Shown: in pieces, positions 58-47,591 of the stretch
Layout: every line of letters starts with the position of its first letter
Numbering within the stretch: the first letter of the stretch is position 1
Assembly (NCBI GenBank): GCA_900128565.1
Contig: LT635927.1
Location: 1 to 47,591 of the forward strand
Reading direction: 5' to 3'
Length of the DNA stretch: 47,591 nucleotides
Origin: Stramenopiles sp. TOSAG23-6
Lineage: Eukaryota
Position numbers and translations under genes: made by a program
Notes under the pieces: model-generated
Seen by the model: only the letters and a program-made list of their open reading frames with translations
Told to the model about the DNA's origin: nothing
Database searches by the model: none

Positions 58-3000
58 CTTGAAACCATCTTTGATAAGTACCAAGAAGAGCCACAGTTAT
101 TAGACCCAGAATTAGAATCTATTGTCTTGCCTTTAATGAAAGGTATTCGCTCAGCTGTAATTGCGTGGGATGTCGCTGCACTGTCTGCAGAATCCACCGA
201 AACTCTTGTTCAAAAAAAAACTGAAGTTTGTGCATTTCCTTTTCAAGCATACAGAAACCCACGTTTAGATCGTTTGCTCAAGGTTGTTTACACACTATGT
301 AAGGTGAGAGGACGGAAAACTGTCGTTCGTTTGATGCCTCATGCTGTGAGTGACCTAGAACCAACTCTACGGTTATTACAGAGTCAAGATCCATGTGACT
401 GTACAACGTGGAAAACACGATATTCTCTATTACTTTGGCTTTCTATTCTTGTGCGTGTACCATTTGATTTGACTTCAATAGATTCCTTGGGTCATAAAAA
501 AGAAAACTCTGATATAAGTCTTATAAGTCGAATCATGTTCGTTGCAAAGTCATATCTCGATGATCCAAATGCTTGTAGAGATGCTGCAGCTGTACTTGTA
601 GGTCAGCTCATGACTCGACCTGATCTTGAAGATACAGAATTAAAGTTATTTTTTGAATGGGCCAATGATAAATTACAACGTCTTATCATGGGTAATGATG
701 ATGAAGATTCAATCAATGATGTAACTGTACCTTCCACACCTCATGAATCAAACGGGCGTGAAGTATTCTTAATAAGTGGTGTTTTCCATGCTCTTGTTGA
801 AATATTTAAACATGGTCATCGTGAAAATGTTTTGCAACATGTTAATATTATTTTTGATAATGTTTTGGATGCTGCGGATTCATCTACTAGGATTTCTACT
901 ACATTGCAACGGAAGATGGCATGTAAATTAGCACAACGTGTTGGCTTAGCATTTCTCCCTCCCAGAATTCCAAAATGGCGTTATGAGAGAGGTCAAAGAT
1001 CACTAGTTGCAAATCTTGAAATATTTGGAAGCTCTGAGTCTAATAAACCAACAAAACCAACAAATGCATTTGCAAACCAGAGCAATTCTGTAGATGATGA
1101 TGAAGAAGAAGATGTTGATCAAGAAGTTGAAGAACTTATTGAGGTACTTTTGTGTGGTTTACGTGACAAAAATACTGTGATCCGTTGGTCAGCCGCGAAA
1201 GGAATTGGTCGTATAACTGGCCGTTTACCTTCTAAATCACTTGCTGATGTTGTCACTCGATCTGTTGTAGAACTTATTACTGAAACAGAATCAGATGGTG
1301 CGTGGCATGGTGCATGTCTTGCGCTTGCCGAATTAGCTCGTCGGGGTTTATTGGTCCCAGAAAGATTAGAGCAAGTGACACCAATGATTGTACAAGCATT
1401 GTGCTATGATGAACGTCGTGGTGCACATAGTGTTGGGGCTCATGTCCGTGATGCAGCTTGCTATGTATGCTGGGCATTTGCTAGAGCATACAGTCCTGAG
1501 GTGATGCGTCCTCATATGTTGGAACTATCACGGGCTATGCTTGTCACCGCGACATTAGATCGGGAAGTCAATTGTCGACGTGCTGCATCTGCTGCTTTTC
1601 AGGAAAATGTTGGTAGGCAAGGTCATGAAAACTTTGCTCATGGAATTGATATTTTGACAAAAGCTGATTATCACTCTCTTGGCCTTCGCACAAATTCTTA
1701 TTTGAATATTGCGCCATATATAGCTCAGTACGATGAATATCGACATTCTCTTGTGGATCATTTGCTTCACACAAAACTGCGTCATTGGGATAAAGAACTA
1801 CGACAACTATCTTCCCGTGCTTTACATAATATTGCTCCATTAGATCCTACATACTTTGTTGAAGTTGTACTACCAACACTAATTCCATGGACACTTAATG
1901 ATCAAGTATTTGTTCGTCATGGCGCTTGTCTTGCCATTGCGGAAGTTGTATTGGCTTTGTCTCAACCACCGCATGAACATGCACAGAAATTGTTAGGTGA
2001 AACAATGCTATCTCAAATCCGCAATATTACAATGAAGGTAGAAAAGGCTCGAATGTATCGTGGACGTGGTGCATATCTAATGCGTGAATCTGTTTGTCGA
2101 CTCATATTTGCTATGGCTGAGGCAAGCCATCCATTAAGTCGACGTGCTCAATTACGTTTACTGAAAAGCATTTTTGAAAATTTGTGTCAAGCTCGTGAAG
2201 AAACACAAACGCTTGCAGTGGAAGCTTTAGGAGCTTTTTCGCATGAATACTTTAATACGTGTGATTCGAAGGATTCTGCTGAACTAATACCTGTCGTAGT
2301 TTTACCACTTATCGAGCAAGTGTCAGAGGAAGTCACGTCAGTTCGTCGAGGAGCTAGTCTTGGTCTTGGCGCTCTTCCACGCAATCTCATTGCACATGAC
2401 TCAGATGTTGTAGAAAAAGTATTGGCTACACTTATATTGGCCACACAATTAGAAATTGAAATAGATCTTCAAGATGCAGAATCTAGACGAGATGCTATTC
2501 GTGGTTTAGTAGGTTTCTGTTGTGAACTCGGCGTTGGCGTCGGCGGTCTTTCGCCTACACAGGGAATCAGAGCTTTCGATTCTTTAATGAATTGTCTAAA
2601 TGATTATAGTGTAACCGATCGTGGCGATGTTGGTTCATTTGTACGCAAGGCCGCCATTATTGGTTTAGAAAAACTAGTTACAATGTTGGTTGGTGCAGAG
2701 TTAAATAATTCCAATAGTGCTCATCAAGAGGAGCTTGTAAAAACTAAATGGGGTGTAGCCAAAGTCCAACGTTGGTTAGCCGAGGGCACTCGTTGTCGTG
2801 TTATCTTTAAGAGCCCTCAAGAAGGTGCGACCCATTTTGAAAATGGTGTTACTGTTATTGATAGAGATATGATTGATTTCAACTCCTCTGAAACATTACC
2901 TGAAAAAAGTTTGAGTGGCACACAGAATATATCTCGACGTGTAGTATTCACGGGTGCGATGAGTAAGAAATTGATGGATGGTCTCTTACGACAGGCTTGT

Positions 3001-3986: not shown

Positions 3987-6900
3987 TTATGCATCTGCAT
4001 CTCCAAATTCATGTACATCCGAACTTGTATTACTCTTATTACTTTTCGCTACTTCGCACACATCAACCTTTTTATCTTCTTTTTCTTCAACATCATCTTC
4101 ATCGATGTCAATATTATATGATGGATTTGAAAAGTACATAGACCTATTATTTGCTTCAACTGAACCCAGTTTTTCATTATTTTTGTCTACCATTTCAACT
4201 TCAGCAATAGGGAAACATGCAGAGTTGCTTTTACGAATTTGTGTGAGACGGCGTTTATCTAGAGCCGATGCCTTCAGAGGATCATCGCCTTCCCCACGCA
4301 TGCTATTAGATTTCTCTAACTTTGCAGCTGCCCAAAGATCAAGAAAAGAAAATCCAGGAGGGGCAGGGGGAGGTAACTTGTATAAATTATGGGCTTTAAC
4401 TTTTCGATCATACATAAGTTCCCTCTGATGACGTACGCGATAAAGAGCAAGTGCCTTCCATGATCCAATACCAGCAAAAAATACCATCACCCCAGCAACA
4501 AGTGATAAGTATACATATGTTACAAGAGAACCAACAATATAATCACTATAGTCATCTCGAGTTCCCGAAAACTCAAGAACTTTTGCAAGATTAGAAAGAT
4601 CTTCATCAGACATATCTGCAACAGCTGTTTTTACAATGTCAATCTTTAATAATACTGAAAGTGCAACACCAAATAGAAGTATTCCAAATATTATTTCTAC
4701 CCATTTGAACCACAAGAGAATTTTACGACCAGTTGTGCCACGTGTCTCTATAACACTAGAATCATTTCCATCTTTATCTTTTCGTGGAATAGGAGGATAT
4801 CGAGCAGTCATATAATGTGCATACCATCCGATTAAAGAAGTAATCATCAACACACTCGCTGGACCAAGAAGCATAATCATAATCCAAGTTGGTATTGTTT
4901 CAGTTGATATCAAATAACTAGACCATGAAGTAACTATTAATCCAAAGCAGAATGTTATTATATTGGATACCATCATCAAATTAAGTACCAAATTTTTGAA
5001 TGTAAGAATGCGAGCAGATACTGTAACAGCAAGCACAATAGTCAATAAAGTTAGAGAAGCAACAGAAATCAATGTATAAAACCAATGACTCGATTCTTCT
5101 ATAAATTTGTCTAAAGCAGCACCATATTCTAACACATGATACTCCTCTTTCGCATATAAGTATTTATAGGCTTCCCAGTACTCAACTATAGCACGTGAAA
5201 AGAAATCTTTAAAAGCAAGGAAAATTATTAAAATAGATACAATGCCTAGCAGTGATACAATATTAATGTAGAAATACAAAAGAGTTTTCAGATTTGGTTT
5301 TGAATCAGCGATGACCAAGATACCGAGGATAGAATACACTAAATTATAAAAAGCAAAAAAACTAAGCACTGGTATTTGTCGAAAAGAACCTGACCATGTT
5401 TCAACTTCATCCCTCGAAATTAGTATAATCAATATTATCAGCACAAGGCCAAAAAGTAGCCATACAATATTTAAAATGAAGAGAGTCCACGAAAGACAAC
5501 TGCAACCATCTTTGTGTCGAATTTTCCATACTTCCATTTTTTCACGCCATTGTTGATAAGTACTACTATCAGAAATCTCACCATGTTTCACATCAAGCCC
5601 ACAACAAAGTTTCATCCGGATCGAAAGAGGCCGACGAACTCTGCGACAGCAACAGAGCACAATGAAAAATAAAAATGGAATAATTACAATTACCGAAAAT
5701 AAAATCCATTCCAGTAAGATTGAAGATTCACCATAAAGAGTCCCAGAGGTATCTTCCATATCACAGAATTGCTTTGGTATAGGACACATGAAAGATCCTG
5801 TAAATCCAGGAATAAAAATCTTTCCACCGCCTGAGGGGCATTGATACCAAGCTTTCCCAAACCTATTGCGTATCATAACTTGTAAATATGTTGGAGTAAA
5901 ACAATTCATCGCATAACATAGTCCATATGACGCAATTGTAGGTGAAAATTTAGGTGATCCTAGTTCTACTAATGAAGATTGAAAACATCTACAGTTCTTA
6001 CAATGACTCTGTCCACCAAATTTTTCAATATCAGTACTCAATGTAGAAAATAATTTTGAGAAATCCATCTTTACATTTGGAGCACTCATTAATTTATTTG
6101 ATGTTGAGCTTGGTTTTTCATCTTGACAATTCCAATATCCTACACGAACAGGAACATAATCCATGCTATCTGAAAATCCACCGACACTATCTCCAGAGCC
6201 ATAATATCTATACCAAGAGGGTAATGCAGGATGATCTGGATTCCTATAGATTTTAAGAGGCGCCGTAGGTGAACTACCACCAGGTGAAGAAAAATTCTCC
6301 GGTGCTTGAAAATCACCATTAGGCCAACGAAATACATTACATCGTGCACTCATTCTATTATCAGAAGTACACCCAGTTGCATTTGGATCACTTAAATCCT
6401 TACAAACATATTCAGAACTCCAATCTTCAACAGGATTATTACTATTTACAAAAGTACATCCCTGGTGTCGACCCCACCGCAAATAACCAGGTGTACGAAT
6501 TCTAGCAGTTTCAACACCAGTCTTAGTATCGCTAGAAAAAAGACTTGAATCTGCATTTTTTTCTTCTTTAGCAGTTTTATCTAGAAGTCGACCACCCACA
6601 GCAAAATTACCATTCTTGTCTTTTCGGACAATGTACTGTCGCGTATCCTCAAACCAAGCTAATGTTATATCAGAAAGGTAAGGCTCACCTGTGCCACTGC
6701 CATACGACATTAATTCTGGTCCCATTAATCGACTTTCCCAGTGACTGCCACGTCCAAGGACTAAATCTTCCATAGGCATACCATCCATAGTAGGACATCC
6801 ATACTGTTCACGCACTGTAGACAAGACCAAAGGAGTAATAACTTTCAATGCTAATTTTGGGAACTTACCATCATTTGTAGTACCTGACCAGACACCCACG

Positions 6901-7865
6901 GGAAGTTGCTCTGATCCCCATTGTTCTGGTTTAGATACACCATTTAAACACTTTCCATCTTCCTTACGTTTTGAGTCAGTGCATGTAGTATCATCCTGTA
7001 TAAACAATGAAGGAGTTCTTGTAGGATCACAACAACCAAGTAGATGAAATGTCTCGTGTAATGACAATTTACGTTCCTCTTGTTGTACATCAGGAACAAG
7101 AGTGTTTGCTACATCAATCCCTTCAGGAACTATATTATGAAAACCAACTGTACAACGACCATATTGGTCATATTGAACACAGTAAGCAAAACCCGATACC
7201 GATGCTGTAGGATGTGACTGCATCGTTACATATATAACAAGATCAGTATCATCATAATGAATTTTACCTTGATTATCTCGCTTAATAACTGCAGTAGGAA
7301 ACGATAGTAAGGCTGTTTCATCTACTGTAATACCATTTTTCACTGAATTAATAGTAAACGCGTCTTTGATGTAAGAACCAGTCCAAGAAGCAAGACGCTT
7401 CACAACAGCAATGTTTTCGGTTGTGAGAACATTTCCCTTTTTGCACACAAAAGAACAAGGTTGATCATTCCGCAAGCTACACGGATCAACAGTTTCATTC
7501 ACGGAGAAGCACTGACCAGTTCCTTTTACACCAGTCTCTAAAAAGTCAAACACGTAAGTTGTGCGGAAACTGTTGACAGTATTTTTAAGCGCTTCTGACT
7601 TCAAACGCATTGAAGGTGAATAATATCGTAAACCTCCATTAAATTCTACATCTGAGGCATATTCTTCTATTTTAATACTAGTTCTTCGACGGTTTTGTTG
7701 ATTAGTGTGCTCTGAAATAACAAGGTCATTGTGGTAATCTTCGAACCTGGTAACTGGGGTTATCGAGTGGAAGTGACCCGAGAACACGGACGTTCGGTTC
7801 ACAAGCGAAGAAGCTCTACAAATTCCAACACAAACAGCAGCAATGTAAAAGATTAAGGCATTCAT
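3987..7865 (-). CDS. Leishmanolysin-like (peptidase M8) zinc metalloprotease with a C-terminal multi-pass membrane region
   Basis: Signal peptide; HETFH zinc motif (7058..7044); VREQYGC, SHWESRLMGPELM (third His and Met-turn), SDITLAWFEDT, WGRHQGCTF, MDYVP; Cys-rich ectodomain followed by about 9 hydrophobic helices. Confidence 0.88.
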   Translation of the reverse strand: MNALIFYIAAVCVGICRASSLVNRTSVFSGHFHSITPVTRFEDYHNDLVISEHTNQQNRRRTSIKIEEYASDVEFNGGLRYYSPSMRLKSEALKNTVNSFRTTYVFDFLETGVKGTGQCFSVNETVDPCSLRNDQPCSFVCKKGNVLTTENIAVVKRLASWTGSYIKDAFTINSVKNGITVDETALLSFPTAVIKRDNQGKIHYDDTDLVIYVTMQSHPTASVSGFAYCVQYDQYGRCTVGFHNIVPEGIDVANTLVPDVQQEERKLSLHETFHLLGCCDPTRTPSLFIQDDTTCTDSKRKEDGKCLNGVSKPEQWGSEQLPVGVWSGTTNDGKFPKLALKVITPLVLSTVREQYGCPTMDGMPMEDLVLGRGSHWESRLMGPELMSYGSGTGEPYLSDITLAWFEDTRQYIVRKDKNGNFAVGGRLLDKTAKEEKNADSSLFSSDTKTGVETARIRTPGYLRWGRHQGCTFVNSNNPVEDWSSEYVCKDLSDPNATGCTSDNRMSARCNVFRWPNGDFQAPENFSSPGGSSPTAPLKIYRNPDHPALPSWYRYYGSGDSVGGFSDSMDYVPVRVGYWNCQDEKPSSTSNKLMSAPNVKMDFSKLFSTLSTDIEKFGGQSHCKNCRCFQSSLVELGSPKFSPTIASYGLCYAMNCFTPTYLQVMIRNRFGKAWYQCPSGGGKIFIPGFTGSFMCPIPKQFCDMEDTSGTLYGESSILLEWILFSVIVIIPFLFFIVLCCCRRVRRPLSIRMKLCCGLDVKHGEISDSSTYQQWREKMEVWKIRHKDGCSCLSWTLFILNIVWLLFGLVLIILIILISRDEVETWSGSFRQIPVLSFFAFYNLVYSILGILVIADSKPNLKTLLYFYINIVSLLGIVSILIIFLAFKDFFSRAIVEYWEAYKYLYAKEEYHVLEYGAALDKFIEESSHWFYTLISVASLTLLTIVLAVTVSARILTFKNLVLNLMMVSNIITFCFGLIVTSWSSYLISTETIPTWIMIMLLGPASVLMITSLIGWYAHYMTARYPPIPRKDKDGNDSSVIETRGTTGRKILLWFKWVEIIFGILLFGVALSVLLKIDIVKTAVADMSDEDLSNLAKVLEFSGTRDDYSDYIVGSLVTYVYLSLVAGVMVFFAGIGSWKALALYRVRHQRELMYDRKVKAHNLYKLPPPAPPGFSFLDLWAAAKLEKSNSMRGEGDDPLKASALDKRRLTQIRKSNSACFPIAEVEMVDKNNEKLGSVEANNRSMYFSNPSYNIDIDEDDVEEKEDKKVDVCEVAKSNKSNTSSDVHEFGDADA

Positions 7866-38177: not shown

Positions 38178-39022
38178 ATGACAATTCCAACAAAAATAAA
38201 GTATCAACCAAAGAAAGAATCTGCCTCGGTGCATCCTGAATTGTCTAAAATTGTTGCGTCAGCGCAGAAAGTGATCTGTTGTTCACTGACAAAACCAATG
38301 CCTCCATGTGATGTAGAGCAATTATCAGCTCTACTTTCAGAAAAGGTAACTTTGATTATGACAAAAAGAGACCAAGAAACGGATACAAAAGTTTCAACAT
38401 TTGTGGAACAAATAGATAAAAATACAATGTTATTTGCGGAGCAATTGAAAAATATTGAAAAAGACCTGAAAGCCTTCACAGAGTCATTCTCTACAAATAT
38501 TGATGGAAACAGTGAGTTCAAATACAGTACAGAAAATGACTTTGTAACAGTTCAATCAAATACTGAGAGTAATCATCATTCAACTAAACGAGCTTGGCAA
38601 GATACAGATAATTGCCTTGGAAGAGTGCGTGTACGTTGTCCACTTACATTTCAAATTAATTGTTTTTTTGTACCAAATTTCGTACCTAACGAATTTCAAA
38701 TTTGAGATATTTTTTCACAACTCCTAAACGAATTCGTTGTTCTGCATCTCCTTCAATTAAAACGTTAACAAACACAAGACGAAGTAAATTACCTATAAAA
38801 TCCACTGATATGTTAGCGACATGGTTCATGAATCACAAAACTAATCCATATCCGACTATACAAGAAAAACGAGAACTTGTAGAAAAAACTTCACTTAGTA
38901 TGCGACAAGTCAATAATTGGTTTACAAATATGCGTAAACGTCATTGGAAACCTTTGAAACAAGGACGAAAGCCGAGATCTTACGAAGAGTACAAGCTACT
39001 AGAAGAAATGAAAAAAGGATAA
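38178..39022 (+). CDS. TALE-class homeobox transcription factor (two reading frames; joining unresolved)
   Basis: 38702..39022 encodes RRSKLP...LATWFMNHKTNPYPT..EKREL...QVNNWFTNMRKRHWK with the PYP three-residue loop extension. The upstream ORF from 38178 supplies the likely ATG; intron-like sequence lies at 38631..38706. Confidence 0.8.
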
Positions 39023-39239
39023 ATGTTATATGAATGTATTATTTTTAACTGTAAAAAAGTATAATATATTTCAAACTGAATTTCAATTTGTACATTTTCT
39101 AGAACTATATAATATTCAAAAATAATTTATTAGTCTACATCTTCAAAAAAGTAATATAAAAACATACTACCCCTCCGTGTGAAAGCGATAAGCTTGAAAA
39201 AAAACGACAGTTCTCTCTCTCTTACACAAATGCCTTCCT

Positions 39240-40025
39240 TTATGCATCACTAACAATGGCCAGAATATCTTCCTCGCGGAATAAGAGTAGTTCTGGTTCA
39301 TCATCAGCTGTTGGTAACTTAGTACCACCAAATTCAGGAAGAAACACTTTGTTACCTACTGTTAAACTCATAGGAGCTATGCTTCCATCCATTGTGAGTG
39401 CTCCTGGTCCTACAGCGATGACTTCTCCCTGTGGAAGAGTCTTTTGCGCTGTCTCTGGCAACATGATACCTGTGCTGTAAATAATAGATGAAATCAGAAT
39501 ATGTTCAGTAAAAGATTATGACAAAATATTTGGAAAAAATCCACAAAAAGACACATAATCACGTATATACAGATTGAAATCGTAATATCTGAACCAATCA
39601 CATCATTGGATGTGAATGAATTGGATAGTTATCTCGATATGGCTACTCTAGCGCATGCGTTTACCATTATGTTCATTCAATAAAAATTGTCATTGGTGTT
39701 GACACAACCAACAACAATTTTTACAGGTAGCGAAGCTTGCTACAATAACGATTGGTGATATAACACGCGCAACAATTTCATTGACAGACATGTGAACAAA
39801 ATGAATGACGAACATTTTGATCTGATGTAACTTCCATCAAATATTTGGAAAAAAAATAAAGACGAGCAGTAAAAGCTGCCCGAACACAAACGAAACTCAA
39901 TGAAAGTTGTTTTCAGCAATGTTAAAGAAAATCAACTTACCACCAGCAGTGACTGTCTCAGCCAAAGCTTTCTGTACCAAAACACGGTTTCCTAAAGGTG
40001 CGAGACGGCGAGCGAGGTTAGCCAT
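39240..40025 (-). CDS. HSP10: 10 kDa chaperonin (HSP10/GroES), 104 aa; exons 40025..39941 and 39469..39240
   Basis: Exon 1 (missed by the ORF track) reads MANLARRLAPLGNRVLVQKALAETVTAG. The splice restores TAGGIMLPE, followed by GEVIAVGPG, LPEFGG, FREEDILA. Confidence 0.95.
39470..39940 (-). other. Spliceosomal GT-AG intron in HSP10 (471 nt, phase 1)
   Basis: G|GTAAGT donor and TTACAGCACAG|GT acceptor; removal gives an in-frame, full-length HSP10. Confidence 0.93.
39540..39838 (-). ncRNA. Candidate structured intronic RNA or insertion of unknown class
   Basis: Consecutive hairpins, including a 16-bp stem with two G-U pairs on the transcribed strand (39681..39723), bounded by 16-bp direct repeats. 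No known RNA family recognised. Confidence 0.35.
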
Positions 40026-40165
40026 TGACATTTTTAGTTACACAAACTTCGTTAGTTACTAATCAAAAGGACGCAGTAAACAAACACACAAAGGTAGAAA
40101 GGGCTAAGGGCGCACTGACACCACACAAAAGTCACACAAGTCACGTTTTGACCAAATTTAGAAAT

Positions 40166-40205
40166 TTTTGCCACGTGTCGTGTCGCCAAATTTTGCCACG
40201 TGTCG
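40166..40205. promoter_or_regulatory. Duplicated G-box-like element TTTTGCCACGTGTCG x2 in the HSP10/CLU divergent spacer
   Basis: Exact 15-bp copies at 40166..40180 and 40191..40205, each containing CACGTG. Confidence 0.5.
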
Positions 40206-40338
40206 GCCAACTTCACGGTTTCATAAACTAACGGGTACCTAAAATGGCAGTCACAAGTAATATTTTTTTTTCAAAAGACAATGTCAAATCATTCTTGATT
40301 TACAAAAATTTCCAATTTACAAAATGCTGGAATAGAAT

Positions 40339-43300
40339 ATGGATAGCATGAGCAACGAGGTTATTTTAGACTCTCCAAATAGTATATCATCTTGGATTGA
40401 TGGTGTTGTCGAAGTTGATTCTACAGATGATGAGTTTGATAATGGATTTGACACTGGTGACAACTCTTCAGATAAAGAACAACTAAAAAGAAACGTTCCT
40501 CAAAAGAAACCTGGAAGATCTGGTTCAAATTTTGCAGTTGGTGCTACTAAGCTGTCGAAGAATGACCCTAGAGCCTTGCTTCTTTCTACACGACCATATT
40601 TTGTCCACGGTGCTGGAATAGACTCTGCAAATGGCAAATATACATTTGACCCTGATAGTGAGGTAGACTTTATGAATACTTCAAAATTTAAACGAAGATG
40701 GTATCAGGAAAAAATATCAATTATTGATGATTCCAATAGTGGCGGAAATATTTACGAGCTCTTCGAGTTACTTCGAATTGGAAGGTGTAAATGGGTTTTT
40801 CGTGTCCATACAAATAATTGTGCAACAAGTAAACTCACAGAACTTAAAAATTTCAAAGTAGAAAACTTTGATTGTCACGTTGATCTATACATGTGTGATA
40901 ATCCATCACCACTACCTCCACATGTTGGATGGACATCTTTGAGCCCTCAATATGAACCAGCGCCAATTTTTGTGCAGGAGTCTGGCTATGACCTTGTCAT
41001 ACGTCATATTCAAAAATGTTCTGAAGATCCACAACAGATTTCGACTCTCCGGCGCCGTACTAGTATTGAAACTCAAAATGAAGTTAAAAGTTCTGTCAAA
41101 GATATGAATAGTGATACCCAATCTTTCGTAGCAACATCTCGAATTGTGTCAAGTGAATATACTACGTATGAACCAAATAAAACTTCAAATAATGGTACAA
41201 GTATTAGTAGTAATAACTCTTCACCCGTTGGTGTTTTTGATGGATATACTACTTATGAAACAAATATTTCTCAATCTGATGTTTTCACTGAAAGTACATA
41301 TGAAAGTACCTTACACGCTAAAAAAGATACTTATATTACATATGAACCTAGTGGTTATAGTAGTACAGTTACAACAAGTACAAATGAAAGAGATACGATA
41401 CATTATAAACATGAATTAAGTCAAAAACAAAGCAAACCTGAAGATGATTTAAAAAGAGTCAATTTTAATGCACAATTTCAAAGTGCACTTGAAATGCCTT
41501 CTGAAACAAGACAACAAAAATTGAAAAAGTTTCAAAGATTAACTGAAATTACCCAGAATTTCATTTTTCTGGCAAGAACTTATGCAAAAGTAATTATTCT
41601 TGAACAATTCCTTGCACCTGATAGTAGAACAATTATGCGGAATACAAAATCAATAGGAGGTATCGCTGGCGGAGAAAAATTTATAGTAGGTGATATATTC
41701 TTCAAGGCTGCTAATGTTTCTACTGTGTACAACGGTAGTTACGAATTCGGTGCAAAAGCTCTTGCCAATGATCTTCTGGGCTGTGAACATGCTTTCAATG
41801 CGGAAATTGACGGACTTCATTTCGCGTTACAAGTTGTGATTGACTACCTTGGTCATCGATTGCAAGCGCAAGCGTTGCTACCGATAAAATCAACAAATCA
41901 AGATCCGCAGAAAGGAGTTAATAATAGTACATTAGAGCTGGGTTCGTCGAATGGTTTATGGACTATTGCAAGTCCCTCAGGCTTAGCGGAGACAACTGCA
42001 CAACCAATAGAAAAGATGAGAAAGCTTGGAGAAGCGTTAAATCTGGCTCCACATACGGTAATCGAACGCTCCACAGGAAATAGTCATCTAGTAAGTACAG
42101 CAGCTGATTTAGAAGTACACGTAAGTCACGCTGATAGAAGAACATATCTTGTGGATCTCGCGAGACTTTTTCCACCAGAAAGCCCTCAAGCCGTTCCCCA
42201 TCTCAGGTTTAGTCCTATGCTTGCCGGGATGAAAGGAGCGAGTCTTTTCTGTAGACTTCTGCGACCAGAACTTGTTGCGGCTGGGGCAAAACCACTTTCA
42301 TGTGACACGTTCACTGCGTTTTCTACAGGAGATGAAAAAGGTGATATCTACTCTAGTGATGTCCATGACGCAACAATGAGGCTAATTCAAGATGTGATCC
42401 CACGATTAGCGAGAAAATTATCTTCATCAAGTGGTGCGTTAGACCCTATGTGTGTAGGGGAAACTCTTCATAAGCACGGTATTAATTTACGGCATCTAGG
42501 CCTTCTTCGGGCTCATGTCCCACTTGAATGTGGTCAACTTCGACGAGTTCTACTTGTAGAAATGGTCGTTCGGGCACTTAAGCAATTTATGCGTAAAAGT
42601 CAGCGTATCTTAATAAGGTATGAAAAGAAGGTCAGTATGCAACGATGTAGAGAGTTTTGTGCAACAGCGTACAATACTATTTTTGGTGATGGCCCTCACT
42701 CAATTAGTTTCTGGTGTAACGTTGTTGAGCGCGAAGTACTGTTGAGATTTGGATGGCTTGCGTTTGATGTTGACGAAATCGGTAAACTCCGCGACCTCTG
42801 CCTAGAACGATACCAACGTGAAATACTATTTGAACGGTTGCAGTCATCTACGGGAGTTTTTATAGAGTCATCTGCTCGATATTTACTTCAGACAGAATAC
42901 GCCGACAAGCGAGTATCTAAGTGCATTGAAGCAGATATTAAACTTAAACCTGTGGTACGCTTTCAATATATTCACGACTTTTGGAAAGGGATGCTTCTAG
43001 AACTAAGTGCTGAAACAAAACAATCTTGTTGTGATTACACAAGTTCACTAAGGTTACGTGAAGTAGCTATGCCACATTTCAAGGCTGCATTAGACTCAGT
43101 CCCAAATGACTTATATATCATGGATACCTACAAAAAGTCTCTTTCTCGGCTTGTGCAACTTATGATTTTCGTTAATCCAGTAACACTTGAGCGAAGCACC
43201 AACGAAGGCGTGAAATTACATGGACTTATTCCTTCACCCGTTTGTTTACGCCGCCTTACCGGATTATTAACAGGTCGTGAAGGAATTGATAGTAATATAA

Positions 43301-45957
43301 TCTTTATTTTACAACAGGCTTTAAAATCCGGACAATACCATATCGCCTCTGACATTCTCGTGTTCTTGCGACTTTCAACACCAAAAAATGATATTGTTTT
43401 AACTCTAGATTCTCCTATAAATGAAGCAAGTGACACAAAATCTACATCTATCGAGGAAAGTGGAAAATTTGAGTTACCCAAATCGCTTTCACACACAGTA
43501 TCCTCAACAGGATTTATTCTTCCAGCCATATCACCTGGAATTTCTACCAGAACACGGTCTCTTTCATTAAGCTTTAGCCTATCCGACCTATTTCCGATAG
43601 AATCTACATGTGTTCAAGCCGTGTCTCTTTTCTGTGAAGGGTATGTTTGTGGACGAGGTAATGATATTATTCTAAAATTGAAGGAACTCCAGTCTTTGAA
43701 TCAGTGTAATAATATACGAAGTGCAGCAACTTCGAATTCAACGACTCAAGAAAAGACAGAATCATGGAGACCGGAGTCTTTGAAAGTCTTAGAAGAATCA
43801 AATTCAAGTATTACACTTAAAATTGGTGACTTTTCAGACGTCTTAAGTCATAGAACAAATCGATTGAGTAGTATTGCGTGCCAGTTTTGCGTTCGACGTC
43901 TTATTTCATCTTACTTTCGAAAAAGTAGCATCCGGAACAACATCACATTGAACTTGGGAGGAGCCGATATTGGTAGCCTGAAAAATACTTCTGATGTATT
44001 TACACAGCTTCGTCTGAACCGGAATAGCTCGGGCAGTATCGCAAGGTCAAGTTCGCAATTGTCATATAGTCTGTCATATTCTGACGACGACGATTCTATG
44101 AACTTTTTGAAATCTGGTGGCTCTCCTGGTATCGGGGCATTTTTGACAGAAACGCTTCCTTCAATTAAATCTTTAGAAGGTCTTATACTAGATAAAAATG
44201 ATTTAGAAGATGCTGGTGTTATCGAGTTATGCAGTCTTCCAAAAAATATTCAAATACGCTTCACATCTCTAAAACATCTAAGTTTATGGAATAATAGTTT
44301 TGGTAACCGCGGTGCAACAAGTCTTTGCAAAATTTTAAAAAATATGAATAGCTTGACACATCTTGATGTTAGTTACAACAATATAGAAGATAAGAGTATG
44401 ACACAAATTTTTGTAGCTTCCATGCGATCTAGAATGGAGAAATACCCAGGTATGTTACCACTCCGAATAATATTTGAAAACAACAAACTTAAGAGGTTGA
44501 GTACGTTGGAGCCTGAAATAAATTTAACCGAGGATAAACTACAATCTTTATTACAAAAAATCAACCTTTCACCATCGCCGTCAAAGTCACGTTCTAATGT
44601 TCCGTATAGAAGGGGAAGAGTTTCCGTTAGGGAGATTCAAGAAGAAACTTCAAAGAATGAGCGAGGTGCATGTCGTCTGGTGATGCGTCGTGCTATTGAA
44701 CTTGCTGCCGAGAGTGACGAACATGACTACAAAACTCTAAAAGCCTTACTTTCATTGGATTTTGGAAAAGATATCGTTGAAGCGTGTAAACCGAAATTAC
44801 GACAACTGTTTCAAATGTCTGCAGATGGTATTGATACAAGCTTGTATCGCGAAAATTGCATTCTAAGTGTTTTCCAAACTAATGACACAAGTAATCCACA
44901 ACGTACCGGTCTCGTGGACGAAGAGACGACGTCAACTCTTGCACTTGAAAATGCTACTGTCGTACAAACTGTGAGTCCGACAACCGGGCGATGCAAAATT
45001 CAGTGGGCAGGAACAAAGCATCACTCAATTCAATCAAATATAGTTTCCCGAAACACGCCACTAAGAAGTGAAGTAATAGTGATTGGCAGTGCAAACTTTG
45101 AACATATAGTCTTAACAGATAAAATTCCTCGCGTGAATAGCACACAAATAGGCCACGGCTATAGAAACTGTGTTGGTGGCAATGGTGCCAATCAGGCAAT
45201 TATGGCCGCAAAGCTAGGTGCGTCAGTGAAGTTATTATGTAAATTAGGACATGATGAACACGCGGATCAAATTATTGAAAAGTTGAAAAACAATAATGTT
45301 GACTGCACTCTGGTTTTGCGAAACAAAGATCTCACCACAGGCTTATCTTTCATTATTGTAGATCGCACAGGCCATCATAGCACCGTGTTAAATCCAGGAG
45401 CTAACAAATCGCTCTCTGTTGCTGATATTGATCGTGCTAAATATGCTTTTACTACTGCGAATGTTCTTACAATCTCACTGGGGGTTACACTGGCTGTTGT
45501 GCGTGCCTCCGTAAAACTAGCAATTCGAGAGCGTTTAATGTCGGTTCTTCATCTATCTCCAATATTATCTGACACCTCCTTTGACGAAGATCTTCTCGCA
45601 CTACCAAATGTTGTAGTTATTACAAAGGGAGACATGGATAATCTCCTTGGTATAGCAAATATTCCTGCCCTTCCTTTTGGAGTATCTCAAGACAGCAAAT
45701 ATCTAGGACTTACAGCTTTGGTCGAAAAATATGATTTTAAAGTATTAATACTCATAGAACATGGAAGAGCAACGTTGGCTTTTAGTGATGAGAGAGAAGT
45801 AGAAACTGTTGTTGTTCCTAAAACGAAACGATTTGTTGATTTTTCAGGTGCTGCAGAATGTTTTGTTGGATCATTTGCATTTTTTCTTTCTCAAAAGGAA
45901 ACTATCAGTGACGCTGCAAAACACGCAGCTGAGTTATGCAGTAGTGTACAGTGGTAA
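40339..45957 (+). CDS. CLU-domain protein with leucine-rich repeats and a C-terminal degenerate ribokinase (PfkB) domain
   Basis: CLU: FNAQFQ, ARTYAKVIILE, GGIAGGEKF, IFFK, VIDYLGHRLQAQALLPI, ADLEVH, YLVDLARLFPPE, LLRPEL, LHKHGINLRHLG. RI-type LRRs ~44150..44490. PfkB: VIVIGS, GGNGANQAIMAAKLG, KLGHD, PGAN, VDFSGAAECF. Confidence 0.85.
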   Translation: MDSMSNEVILDSPNSISSWIDGVVEVDSTDDEFDNGFDTGDNSSDKEQLKRNVPQKKPGRSGSNFAVGATKLSKNDPRALLLSTRPYFVHGAGIDSANGKYTFDPDSEVDFMNTSKFKRRWYQEKISIIDDSNSGGNIYELFELLRIGRCKWVFRVHTNNCATSKLTELKNFKVENFDCHVDLYMCDNPSPLPPHVGWTSLSPQYEPAPIFVQESGYDLVIRHIQKCSEDPQQISTLRRRTSIETQNEVKSSVKDMNSDTQSFVATSRIVSSEYTTYEPNKTSNNGTSISSNNSSPVGVFDGYTTYETNISQSDVFTESTYESTLHAKKDTYITYEPSGYSSTVTTSTNERDTIHYKHELSQKQSKPEDDLKRVNFNAQFQSALEMPSETRQQKLKKFQRLTEITQNFIFLARTYAKVIILEQFLAPDSRTIMRNTKSIGGIAGGEKFIVGDIFFKAANVSTVYNGSYEFGAKALANDLLGCEHAFNAEIDGLHFALQVVIDYLGHRLQAQALLPIKSTNQDPQKGVNNSTLELGSSNGLWTIASPSGLAETTAQPIEKMRKLGEALNLAPHTVIERSTGNSHLVSTAADLEVHVSHADRRTYLVDLARLFPPESPQAVPHLRFSPMLAGMKGASLFCRLLRPELVAAGAKPLSCDTFTAFSTGDEKGDIYSSDVHDATMRLIQDVIPRLARKLSSSSGALDPMCVGETLHKHGINLRHLGLLRAHVPLECGQLRRVLLVEMVVRALKQFMRKSQRILIRYEKKVSMQRCREFCATAYNTIFGDGPHSISFWCNVVEREVLLRFGWLAFDVDEIGKLRDLCLERYQREILFERLQSSTGVFIESSARYLLQTEYADKRVSKCIEADIKLKPVVRFQYIHDFWKGMLLELSAETKQSCCDYTSSLRLREVAMPHFKAALDSVPNDLYIMDTYKKSLSRLVQLMIFVNPVTLERSTNEGVKLHGLIPSPVCLRRLTGLLTGREGIDSNIIFILQQALKSGQYHIASDILVFLRLSTPKNDIVLTLDSPINEASDTKSTSIEESGKFELPKSLSHTVSSTGFILPAISPGISTRTRSLSLSFSLSDLFPIESTCVQAVSLFCEGYVCGRGNDIILKLKELQSLNQCNNIRSAATSNSTTQEKTESWRPESLKVLEESNSSITLKIGDFSDVLSHRTNRLSSIACQFCVRRLISSYFRKSSIRNNITLNLGGADIGSLKNTSDVFTQLRLNRNSSGSIARSSSQLSYSLSYSDDDDSMNFLKSGGSPGIGAFLTETLPSIKSLEGLILDKNDLEDAGVIELCSLPKNIQIRFTSLKHLSLWNNSFGNRGATSLCKILKNMNSLTHLDVSYNNIEDKSMTQIFVASMRSRMEKYPGMLPLRIIFENNKLKRLSTLEPEINLTEDKLQSLLQKINLSPSPSKSRSNVPYRRGRVSVREIQEETSKNERGACRLVMRRAIELAAESDEHDYKTLKALLSLDFGKDIVEACKPKLRQLFQMSADGIDTSLYRENCILSVFQTNDTSNPQRTGLVDEETTSTLALENATVVQTVSPTTGRCKIQWAGTKHHSIQSNIVSRNTPLRSEVIVIGSANFEHIVLTDKIPRVNSTQIGHGYRNCVGGNGANQAIMAAKLGASVKLLCKLGHDEHADQIIEKLKNNNVDCTLVLRNKDLTTGLSFIIVDRTGHHSTVLNPGANKSLSVADIDRAKYAFTTANVLTISLGVTLAVVRASVKLAIRERLMSVLHLSPILSDTSFDEDLLALPNVVVITKGDMDNLLGIANIPALPFGVSQDSKYLGLTALVEKYDFKVLILIEHGRATLAFSDEREVETVVVPKTKRFVDFSGAAECFVGSFAFFLSQKETISDAAKHAAELCSSVQW

Positions 45958-46525
45958 TTATTATTGGTAGCTTCTTATATATACTGATTGAAGTAATTTA
46001 AATGTAATACAGATATAATCACATTTTTTTTACTATTGTTTTCCAAACTAAAAGATGATAATATCTAAAAAATAATATAATCCGAGATGAATTTTTTTTG
46101 GCCAAAAAAAATTGACCCTAACCCTCCCCGTCCCTAACTGTAAAAAAAATTAAAAAAAATTATTGTTTGATACATTGACCTTCTAGACCACAATCATAGG
46201 GTCATTTCCCACCAAAAATAATGATGATAGCTCAATTATTGATGAATTGTTCATTTGGTGAGTTTTACAGATACACATTTAGATACGTCAAGAGTTTCAG
46301 GGATATTGCATATTTGGAAAAATATTTCACAAAAAATCTAAAAAAATTTGTTACGTAAAAAATTTCCTATAAAAAAATAAATTTGAAATTGAAAAAAAAA
46401 ATGAAAAATATTATTATTTTTTACACTTTCACAAAATCAGTTTTTATTTCAAAATACATTAACCAGTACAACCCCCATCACTAGTACTTTTATTATTGCT
46501 ATTCTAGTTATAACAAACAAGACAA

Positions 46526-47591
46526 CTAAGCAAGATTTTCCATAAATGTGTCAAAATCCATGACATCTTCACTTTCAAGAGTAGACTTTTTTTTTTCCAG
46601 TTTGTCAATTATTTCCTGAATTGGTCCCTTGCGTAGAGAACAATCTTTGATCAACTTGACAAAGTTGACTCTAACGTAAGAATGTGCAGTATCTGCAACT
46701 TTCATCTTCAAATCGAATCTCTTTGACTTTATCTTTTAGTTTCGAAATCGCCTCCTTGATATCATTTTTAGATTTTGCATCTGAGTAGACTTCAGCTAAT
46801 TTTTCATCTAATACACTTTGTACAAACTGCTCCTTCAGCTTTGCTTGTTGATCCAAAGTTGATTTCAGCAATATTATCTGGTGCCTCAATACCATTTTTT
46901 AGGTGCTCTACCTCTGCAATTTGTCTTCACAACTTCTGTTGCAGGCTTCTAATTTTTTTTTGTTGATTCTGTGTGTTGCTGCCATATCTTTGTCTTTGTT
47001 AACATCATTTGGATTAAATGAATTAGGATCAAAACTTCTTCTTTGGTGTACACGTTTTCGGGTTTTGTTGGAGTTATACGTGTTTTTGTCAGGCATTCTT
47101 TCAGTGAACTCAATGCCGTAGTTCACCTTCAAAAACTCGGGAACTTTCTTTGACATTGTTGCAGGCAAATAATAAACACAATTTGGTTTATCGTATTGAA
47201 TGCATGCCTGCTGCGTACTTGAGTTCAAATGAATTCTTAAAAGGTAGGTATGTGGCCCAGCCTGCACATGCGCACCTACCGTGACACCTGTCACCTCAGT
47301 ATACTTGTCATATACCTGTAATGACAGATCATTGGTCGAAATTGTTTTTTTCCCAGACCGGATAGCCTCCTGAAGGGAAAGCGCACTTCATGAATCTTCT
47401 CTCGCTGATTCTCACACAAAAACAACTTCTGCATCAGAATGACTCATACAATTGTCATCAATATCTACATCCATGGCATGATTGGTTGAAGTAGCAGTTG
47501 AAGTAGTATCATTATTAGCAACATCAACAGTCCCAGTCAATGTATGAGAAGTTGGCAATACTTTATTCCAAGTCTTTCTCCTTAATATCTT
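46526..47591 (-). pseudogene. Interrupted ORF of unknown family, 5'-partial
   Basis: One frame runs from the window end to 46671, broken by TGA (47414, 47390), TAG (46910) and TAA. A different frame (46711..46526) carries a protein-like C-terminus. Confidence 0.5.

Follow-up and report, generated by a model that had tools for sequence, protein, structure and literature searches.

What role can a ribokinase-like domain play at the end of a clustered-mitochondria (CLU) protein when its catalytic residues are gone? The question is raised by a gene in a stretch of 47,591 nucleotides from Stramenopiles sp. TOSAG23-6 (assembly GCA_900128565.1, contig LT635927.1, positions 1 to 47,591, forward strand), which is here called the window. 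The source organism is an uncultured marine protist, and this limits follow-up. An initial annotation, made from the letters alone, described a protein of 1872 amino acids with a small N-terminal domain, CLU and CLU-central regions, leucine-rich repeats (LRRs) of the ribonuclease inhibitor (RI) type, and a PfkB (ribokinase family) domain, and proposed a non-catalytic sugar or nucleotide sensor coupled to a CLU scaffold. What the CLU domain does at the molecular level is poorly defined, and its non-canonical relatives are functionally known only from Dictyostelium.

Continuity of the Open Reading Frame

The gene corresponds to one feature of the window:

40339..45957, + strand: open reading frame (ORF) of 1872 aa, stop included (ORF listing and translation)

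The single ORF that had been annotated is confirmed by translation, with 5616 bases free of internal stops. It begins with an ATG at 40339, and an in-frame TAG lies directly upstream at 40333-40335. In one seawater population this ATG is replaced by ATT, so that Met4 (40348) may serve as the start there. Of the population differences listed for ORF positions 40341-43536, 17 out of 26 are synonymous.

A frame of this length might be an artefact, produced by the chance placement of a CLU-LRR gene and a PfkB gene in the same frame or by an assembly join. Independent seawater-metagenome contigs together span the entire ORF. Run X3 (2024) contributes two pieces, 39000-43907 with 42 differing letters and 43866-46342 with 29, and contigs of run X2 (2015) bridge the junction of the two at 43810-44083; the same continuous DNA is present in two independent data sets. 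The mobile intron of this genome, a high-copy element present in the flanks, has no copy within 40339-45957. Its 9-base core motif occurs in the ORF only with one mismatch and no more often than by chance (9 matches in the window, 5.6 expected).

Transcript data are provided by the metatranscriptomes X7 and X8, which come from one sample and yield short contigs (151-309 bases). The ORF accounts for 74% of the stretch compared and contains 13 of the 16 listed pieces, and one X8 piece (44853-45112) spans the start of the PfkB domain. Another piece lies inside the intron of the neighbouring Cpn10 gene, which shows that the libraries contain DNA or unspliced RNA. None of the pieces bridges domains over any distance, and the lack of a domain-spanning transcript among them favors the artefact, as does the occurrence of the relatives P0008, P0002, and P0004 as pieces. 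However, P0002 holds LRR, linker, and PfkB domain in one gene model, and the linker between the two domains is conserved at the protein level. P0004 has no initial Met and begins at the edge of a contig of 1537 bases, which marks it as a fragment of something longer. Together with the stop-free length and the two data sets, these observations make an artefact highly unlikely and support, at the DNA level, one gene rather than a misassembly.

N-Terminal Domain, CLU Core, and Leucine-Rich Repeats

The region preceding the PfkB domain is divided as follows:

40486..41010, + strand: conserved N-terminal domain, residues ~50-224, with VHGAG, NGKY, PPHVGW, and PAP (P0008 alignment)
41011..41451, + strand: low-complexity linker rich in Ser, Thr, Tyr, and Asn, residues ~225-371 (gappy against P0008, poorly conserved)
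41461..42180, + strand: CLU domain (PF13236), residues 375-614 (Pfam, E 6.3e-44)
42439..43650, + strand: CLU-central (PF12807) and conserved helical region to residue ~1104 (Pfam, homology of relatives)
44149..44490, + strand: RI-type LRRs with cores at residues 1279, 1311, and 1339 (Pfam, PDB sequence search, repeat cores)
44491..45069, + strand: LRR-PfkB linker, residues 1385-1577 (two stretches conserved in P0002)

Alignment with P0008 bears out the small N-terminal domain as a conserved unit: residues 50-224 are covered, and VHGAG, NG.Y, PP.VGW, and PAP are retained. All seven population differences listed for residues 72-207 are synonymous. The domain matches no Pfam family at E ≤ 10 and nothing in a PDB profile search below E 0.14; its AlphaFold2 (AF2) prediction from a two-sequence alignment gave no usable model (pLDDT 35.2). 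Among viral contigs 27 pattern matches were obtained, none of them a relative. Haptophyte and giant-virus hypothetical proteins show an atlas feature similarity of 0.83-0.84, which lies below the significance level and serves as a lead only, and the whole protein gave no usable match in the same feature search. In the low-complexity linker that follows, or next to it, cluster five of the nine listed nonsynonymous differences (residues 256-321, with the fifth just before, at residue 222). An in-frame 3-base indel at 41311 is located in this linker as well.

The CLU domain had been placed from about 41464, that is, residue 376, and the Pfam match begins at residue 375. With a score of 150.9 bits (cut-off 24) and profile positions 1-222 of 225 covered, the region belongs to the CLU family. 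It is 31% identical to the Heterostelium protein P0003 over residues 372-708. The CLU-central assignment is also sustained by an eIF3_p135/CLU-central match at residues 701-757 (E 2e-7, 31.5 bits, cut-off 22), which follows the CLU domain but covers only profile positions 5-66 of 171. Homology continues past this match, to residue 925 in P0003 and to residue 1104 in P0008, and a Phaeothamnion fragment (P0142) matches residues 673-924.

Three repeat cores at the annotated site (~44150..44490) agree with RI-type LRRs. LRR_6 is matched at residues 1337-1353 barely above its cut-off (E 5e-5, 23.6 bits against 23.4), and the type is assigned by a PDB sequence match to ribonuclease inhibitor 1dfj (E 1.4e-7). 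P0002 has a conserved counterpart of the last repeat. The linker at residues 1385-1577 contains no Pfam family, and the only hit is a subthreshold one to Tudor_3 (E 0.014). A suspected likeness of this linker to a DEK-C-like helical motif was rejected, as Pfam gives it no support.

The Ribokinase-Derived Domain

The C-terminal part comprises the following features:

45070..45954, + strand: pseudo-ribokinase (PfkB), residues 1578-1872, ending directly after the last helix (Pfam, PDB, AF2, alignment)
45094..45102, + strand: NFE for NxD, residues 1586-1588, with Glu 1588 at the Asp16 equivalent (alignment)
45175..45198, + strand: GGNGANQA, residues 1613-1620, with the di-Gly and the Asn46 equivalent retained (alignment)
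45475..45483, + strand: SLG for QLE, residues 1713-1715, with Gly 1715 at the Glu143 equivalent (alignment)
45622..45633, + strand: TKGD for NxxE (Mg-ATP motif), residues 1762-1765 (alignment)
45838..45858, + strand: DFSGAAE for DTTGAGD, residues 1834-1840 (alignment)

Pfam recognizes PfkB at residues 1578-1866 (E 7.9e-28, 98.1 bits, cut-off 25.8), and its start coincides with the annotated position of about 45070. The AF2 model (pLDDT 90.8, pTM 0.88) has the ribokinase fold with its lid. In Foldseek the model is closest to human ribokinase (E 3e-28, TM 0.81-0.84), with E. coli 1rkd (TM 0.81) also among the top matches. Sequence searches likewise return ribokinases (E 6e-32; in PDB, E 6e-31 to 7e-31), and the nearest named canonical matches are the eukaryotic ones.

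Motifs were compared in an alignment with 68 canonical ribokinases, in which the E. coli numbering was checked via the 1gqt match (offset 18). All five motifs quoted in the annotation, DFSGAAE, TKGD, NFE, SLG, and GGNGANQA, are present where they had been placed. The catalytic Asp of the G/AxGD motif (Asp255 in E. coli, D in 67/68) is replaced by Glu1840 in this protein and by Gly in both P0002 and P0004. The anion-hole Gly, invariant in the 68 sequences, is Ala in all three proteins (Ala1839 here). At the NxxE motif, which serves catalytic Mg2+ according to PMC10339645, the Asn (68/68) is Thr and the Glu (67/68) is Asp in all three, namely, Thr1762 and Asp1765 here. The GGNGANQA motif had been called kept; this is true of the di-Gly and of the Asn46 equivalent but not of the Lys43 equivalent, which is K in 67/68 canonical sequences and Asn 1615 here. 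Nor is the PfkB domain a full one, as had been stated: the canonical sequences extend past the last helix by 6-93 residues (median 13), GAxxSxP loop included, whereas this domain stops directly after the helix and lacks the loop.

An active kinase of altered specificity, with Glu1840 acting as the base, might still be considered. Glu is chemically near Asp and could in principle act in its place, and the domain retains its fold together with the GG motif and PGAN. However, both relatives have Gly at the catalytic position, the invariant Gly preceding it is Ala, the NxxE Asn is Thr, and the C-terminal loop is missing; in E. coli Pfk-2, as described in PMC5405513, mutation of the catalytic Asp largely abolished activity. 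Such a kinase is very improbable. By contrast, the non-catalytic nature proposed for the domain is well supported by the loss of the Asp, the anion-hole Gly, NxxE, and the C-terminal loop: on the evidence of these motifs, the ribokinase copy keeps fold and lid but would be unable to transfer phosphate.

Predicted Homodimer

A homodimer of the PfkB domain was predicted with a score of 0.56, as compared to 0.00 for the best control. The runs agree in at least 96% of contacts, and the partner pLDDT is at least 82. The predicted interface is the lid sheet, formed by residues 1589-1608, 1666-1686, and 1741-1743. In the benchmark of the predictor, 21 of 30 same-chain pairs and none of 23 single chains reached the mark; among eukaryotic test cases without an older solved relative, only one of seven did so. 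The score may reflect memory of solved ribokinase dimers. Conservation at the interface (61% and 48%) is not clearly better than in the rest of the domain (48% and 47%). On this model, the pseudo-ribokinase end may dimerise lid-to-lid.

Ribose Pocket and the Sensor Question

Ribose is contacted in E. coli ribokinase by Asn14, Asp16, Gly42, Lys43, Asn46, Glu143, and Asp255, as given in PMC9604405. Three of these seven contacts (the Asn14, Gly42, and Asn46 equivalents) are kept here, and the other four are changed (D16E, K43N, E143G, and D255E). P0002 and P0004 retain six, losing only the catalytic one. Of the two ligands proposed in the annotation, a nucleotide is unlikely, given the loss of the ATP/Mg side of the domain. 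A sugar may be the ligand, the case being weaker for the protein in the window than for its relatives; the sensor proposal as a whole is only partly supported.

The domain could be a metabolite sensor that has kept its affinity for a pentose or some similar small molecule; closure of the lid would then alter binding by the LRR or CLU parts, and the scaffold would follow metabolism. The contacts preserved in both relatives are in its favor, together with the greater ribokinase likeness of the N-terminal half (lid and sugar site), whose median identity to canonical ribokinases is 33%, versus 21% for the C-terminal half. Cleft motifs are invariant within the family (this protein, P0002, and P0004), and ribokinase lids close on ribose, as reported in PMC9604405. 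Against this stand the small number of contacts left in this protein and the loss of NxxE, anion hole, and C-terminal loop, which makes a nucleotide ligand unlikely. Sensing of this kind is possible but rather doubtful. More speculative still, and to be regarded as a long shot, is a scenario in which marine-protist CLU scaffolds captured a ribokinase as a pentose-binding, lid-closing switch whose pocket was later remodelled here for another ligand. If it held, ribose or nucleoside breakdown products would control the assembly of a CLU-LRR complex, and a metabolite receptor derived from a sugar kinase would be wired to the CLU module.

Relatives and Conservation of the Architecture

P0004 and P0002 are 50% and 43% identical to the 1872-aa protein and have the same catalytic losses, and P0008 carries the N-terminal half of the architecture. 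As the dead domain is shared by P0002 and P0004 and the N-terminal half by P0008, a small conserved family, not decay, is indicated. Within this family the C-terminal half of the PfkB domain is 47-52% identical and the N-terminal half 47-48%, so that the lower identity of the C-terminal half to canonical ribokinases has no parallel inside the family; this too speaks against decay, as do the 17 synonymous changes among the 26 population differences. In the relatives the full architecture is represented by two separate gene models, P0008 and P0002, which may stem from different genes or even different organisms.

Word-based protein searches returned only P0002, P0003, P0004, and three ordinary PfkB proteins. 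A metagenome scan with generic ribokinase motifs kept 80 loci, all of them ordinary ribokinase-like ones with at most 41% identity over the best segment and none with the fused architecture. The CLU, LRR, and PfkB combination was not found in the literature searched (clustered-mitochondria/Clu-domain, ribokinase, and PfkB-pseudoenzyme topics). Beyond this protein it is shared only by a few related marine sequences.

Proposed Role and Significance

On balance, and with somewhat better than even confidence, the protein is best explained as a Cld-like, non-canonical CLU scaffold whose pseudo-ribokinase end is non-catalytic and probably dimerises. It would be a cytosolic multidomain scaffold comparable to Dictyostelium CldA and CldB, in which a lineage-specific small domain is followed by the CLU/CLU-central core, a short RI-type LRR block, a linker, and the ribokinase-derived pseudoenzyme. 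The term scaffold is used by analogy. The dead domain may act as a structural module pairing two chains via the ribokinase lid-to-lid sheet, and the former active-site cleft, conserved in the family, may be where a partner or a small molecule binds. Because the ribose pocket is partly eroded, ligand sensing, if ancestral, may be altered or lost in this species.

The finding overturns nothing known. Recruitment of a small-molecule kinase as a pseudoenzyme is exemplified cleanly by the dead ribokinase, which is also conserved; in the literature searched, such PfkB cases are few beyond plant FLN1 and FLN2. A domain of 320 residues with a confident model is a tractable target for the study of dimerisation and ligand binding.

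Comparison with Known Systems

The closest functional parallels are the Clu-domain proteins of Dictyostelium, described in PMC2906285 as signalling adaptors that bind an RI-type LRR protein in trans. CldA (Clu, SH2, and TPR) and CldB bind the LRR-SH2 protein LrrB, whose repeats were aligned there with a ribonuclease-inhibitor-like protein and NOD3; ComB, a predicted Rab GTPase, also holds a Clu domain (PMC2906285). Heterostelium P0003 combines CLU and LRRs with a villin headpiece. These cases agree with the earlier remark that protist CLU proteins often carry varied additional domains. Two features are shared with CldA and CldB as portrayed in that source: a Clu domain placed in a large multidomain adaptor, outside the mitochondrial-clustering orthologue, and a functional tie of a Clu-domain protein to an RI-type LRR module. 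In Dictyostelium the LRR belongs to a separate protein and is bound via SH2 and phosphotyrosine, whereas here it is in cis and SH2 is absent; moreover, CldA and CldB have no PfkB domain. The union of CLU and RI-type LRRs in one stramenopile chain echoes the CldA/CldB-LrrB association in trans and may point to an ancient functional connection of the two modules. The best amoebozoan match is P0003, in the CLU region only (31% identity), and the comparison with CldA and CldB is made by likeness, not orthology.

The protein is not a CluA/CLUH orthologue. Canonical CLU proteins have an N-terminal CLU_N domain and C-terminal TPRs. With CluA, Clu1, Clueless, and CLUH it shares CLU (PF13236) followed by CLU-central (PF12807) in the same order; it differs from CluA and CLUH in its N-terminal domain and in its LRR-pseudo-ribokinase C-terminus. 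No Pfam family of the CLU_N or TPR type was detected at E ≤ 1 in the whole protein or at E ≤ 10 in pieces of it.

Ribokinase (EC 2.7.1.15; human RBKS 2fv7/5c3y, E. coli RbsK 1rkd) is resembled in fold, lid, and the GG and ANQ motifs. The domain differs from it by the loss of the catalytic Asp, the anion-hole Gly, NxxE, and the C-terminal loop, by three further changed ribose contacts, and by its fusion behind an N-terminal region of 1550 residues. The plant proteins FLN1 and FLN2 are PfkB proteins without detectable kinase activity and subunits of the plastid RNA polymerase complex, as reported in PMC5405513. FLN2 (PDB 8qma) is matched weakly, with E 0.006 as compared to 6e-31 to 7e-31 for ribokinase, and belongs to a different PfkB branch; both FLN proteins are plastid proteins and carry no CLU or LRR fusion. 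What they have in common with the stramenopile protein, where inactivity is read from the sequence, is a kinase-inactive PfkB fold placed within a larger assembly.

The ORF and Its Surroundings

The protein is encoded by a single ORF that translates without a stop over 1872 codons.

Features of the locus and the window
40339..45957, plus strand: ORF of the CLU, LRR and PfkB protein
39240-40031, minus strand: Cpn10/Hsp10 gene, the divergent upstream neighbour
Cpn10/Hsp10 exon 1, minus strand: starts at 40031, MSMANLARRLAPLGNRVLVQKALAETVTAGG, then GTAAGT
Cpn10/Hsp10 intron, minus strand: roughly 460 bases between exons 1 and 2
39243-39476, minus strand: Cpn10/Hsp10 exon 2 (Pfam Cpn10, E 2.4e-18)
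38178-39022, plus strand: TALE/KN-type homeobox gene (Homeobox_KN, E 1.8e-17), split over ORFs 38178-38705 and 38702-39022
46112-46600: very high-copy intergenic repeat
3987-7865, minus strand: ORF of 1292 aa, leishmanolysin domain (Peptidase_M8, E 3.9e-25)

The limits of the ORF are well set, because the Cpn10/Hsp10 gene lies divergently upstream (the two share about 307 bases of upstream region), an in-frame TAG stands immediately 5′ of the ATG, and the terminal TAA is followed by AT-rich DNA and the high-copy repeat. Metagenome contigs from another study and another year span 39000-43907 and 43866-46342, the junction of these pieces is bridged by contigs of a second run, and no joint falls inside the ORF. 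It is one gene at the DNA level, as the initial annotation had read it; at the RNA level, the metatranscriptome contigs over the region are short (one lies inside the Cpn10/Hsp10 intron, 39503-39691) and not decisive. In a seawater population, a G>T change at 40341 turns the first ATG into ATT (Met1 to Ile), so translation there may begin at Met4. An in-frame 3-base insertion at 41311, also in this population, falls in a low-complexity linker.

Elsewhere in the window genes are densely packed, and long ORFs of ordinary eukaryotic families (TBCD, leishmanolysin, Rsm22, glutathione synthase, TAF2 and SNF2 among them) occur on either strand; the host of the leishmanolysin-domain ORF is a free-living marine protist. 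The repeat at 46112-46600 reaches a summed contig depth of about 100,000 in X2 (the second sequencing run, 2015) and 400-3000 in the other runs. Many loose contig ends occur at 46313-46410, with a consensus that includes GTTAGGTAC. It is probably a mobile intron-like element, of which no copy was found within 40339..45957. The sole exact copy of the motif in the window lies at 38682-38690 (minus strand), in the gap of the homeobox gene, which suggests that this gene is split by one of the genome's mobile introns.

Domain Architecture

Pfam domains of the protein
Residues 375-614: CLU, E 6.3e-44, nearly complete profile
Residues 701-757: eIF3_p135/CLU-central, E 2.4e-7
Residues 1337-1353: LRR_6, E 4.7e-5, barely over the cut-off
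Residues 1578-1866: PfkB, E 7.9e-28

Three repeat cores of the RI-type LRR start at residues 1279, 1311 and 1339, and ribonuclease inhibitor chains were matched at E 1.4e-7 in a PDB sequence search. Translation and alignments bore out the coordinates and all the motifs initially quoted for the protein.

The PfkB Domain

The closest solved structures by sequence are ribokinases (human 2fv7, E 6e-32; E. coli 1gqt, E 1e-21). The AF2 model of the domain, built on an alignment of 71 sequences, has pLDDT 90.8 and pTM 0.88; with it, Foldseek places human ribokinase at the top (E 3e-28, TM 0.81-0.84), and E. coli 1rkd gives TM 0.81. E. coli numbering is related to the present protein by a constant offset. 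The representative search supplied 68 canonical ribokinases, against which the protein and two relatives, P0004 and P0002, were compared.

Key residues (canonical; this protein; P0004; P0002)
Catalytic Asp (Asp255): D 67/68; Glu1840; Gly; Gly
Gly before catalytic Asp (anion hole): G 68/68; Ala; Ala; Ala
Asn of NxxE: N 68/68; Thr; Thr; Thr
Glu of NxxE: E 67/68; Asp; Asp; Asp
Asn of NPAP: N 66/68; His; Arg; Arg
Lys of GGKGANQ (Lys43): K 67/68; Asn; Lys; Lys
Asp of NxD (Asp16): D 66/68; Glu; Asp; Asp
Glu of QLE (Glu143): E 68/68; Gly; Glu; Glu

In ribokinase, Asp255 is described as the presumed base (PMC9604405), the 245-261 motif as serving adenine binding and the anion hole, which a monovalent cation helps to shape, and NXXE as the site for catalytic Mg2+ (PMC10339645). 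In Pfk-2, mutation of the Asp in G/AXGD is reported to abolish activity largely (PMC5405513). Both this protein and P0004 end in ...AAELCSSVQW, directly after the last helix, whereas canonical ribokinases extend a median of 13 residues further (range 6-93), including the GAxxSxP loop. The replaced catalytic Asp, anion-hole Gly and NxxE and the absent loop indicate a ribokinase unable to work as such, in agreement with the non-catalytic domain first proposed.

Relatives and Conservation

An exhaustive representative search with residues 673-1872 returned five proteins at E < 1e-30. P0008 (1003 aa) carries the N-terminal domain, CLU, CLU-central and a helical region, with 48% identity across residues 50-1104. 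P0002 (1245 aa) begins within the last LRR and continues through a conserved linker and the pseudo-PfkB to a protein-kinase domain, while P0004 is a 370-aa fragment encoded at one end of a metagenome contig of 1537 bases. The others are P0009, a NACHT-LRR protein matched only in its LRRs, and a tandem insect ribokinase. P0008 and P0002 have gene names of one style from one source; as parts of a single gene they would fit together. The kinase domain of P0002 (residues ~840-1150; Pkinase, E 6.5e-41) lies beyond the shared C-terminus. Since similarity stops at the very point where P0004 and the present protein terminate, the tail may be a false gene-model fusion with the next gene, or else a further architecture of LRR, pseudo-ribokinase and kinase.

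Among the three pseudo-ribokinases the two domain halves are about equally conserved (47-52%). In comparison with canonical ribokinases, identity is 33% over the N-terminal half, which holds the lid and the sugar side, but only 21% over the C-terminal half with the ATP side. The ATP side has changed and then been held, and these proteins form a conserved family and no decaying relic. The listed differences that separate a seawater-metagenome contig from the window (ORF positions 40341-43536) agree with this: 17 of 26 are synonymous, and five of the nine nonsynonymous ones lie in or beside the low-complexity linker, residues 222-321. A further 33, including those over the PfkB part, fall outside this set.

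Proposed Role of the Inactive Domain

The dead ribokinase domain would have a structural role, probably with self-pairing. Many PfkB proteins are described as dimerising via their lids (PMC5405513), and the predicted homodimer interface is located in the lid. The predicted homodimer scored 0.56 against 0.00 for the best control (contact agreement at least 96%, partner pLDDT at least 82), a pass that the predictor may owe to recall of ribokinase dimers already solved, because only 1/7 eukaryotic cases without an older solved relative reached the mark. In the predictor's own tests the mark was reached by 21/30 true homodimers and 0/23 single chains.

The main rival is a domain that binds sugar without phosphorylating it. 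Ribose is liganded by Asn14, Asp16, Gly42, Lys43, Asn46, Glu143 and Asp255, according to PMC9604405; P0002 and P0004 keep six of these seven contacts and have the look of such a domain, but the present protein retains only three. The sensor initially suggested thus survives as this rival in its sugar part, and a nucleotide is the least likely ligand. A structural, self-pairing module is the reading preferred here.

Comparison with Known Clu and PfkB Proteins

Within the papers covered, the literature search turned up none that brings CLU and ribokinase together, and none on PfkB pseudoenzymes under those words. The PfkB fusions checked among the best 150 representative matches were tandem ribokinase, LIM-PfkB and PfkB-DeoC, none of them with CLU or LRR except P0002. 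The protein combines known kinds, an adaptor of the Clu-domain sort, LRRs of RI type and a PfkB domain without activity, in a new architecture that has so far turned up only in a handful of marine sequences.

The CLU core places the protein among Clu-domain proteins; what else characterises canonical CluA/CLUH was not found by Pfam in the whole protein or its pieces. The closest amoebozoan match comes from Heterostelium and combines CLU, LRRs and a villin headpiece. Two Clu-domain proteins of Dictyostelium, CldA and CldB, are reported to regulate specific genes and to associate in a complex with LrrB, which has repeats of the ribonuclease-inhibitor/NOD3 type (PMC2906285). There, Clu and RI-type LRRs reside on separate proteins, whereas here a comparable pairing occurs within one chain; an inactive PfkB domain, as in this protein, is found in plant FLN1 and FLN2.
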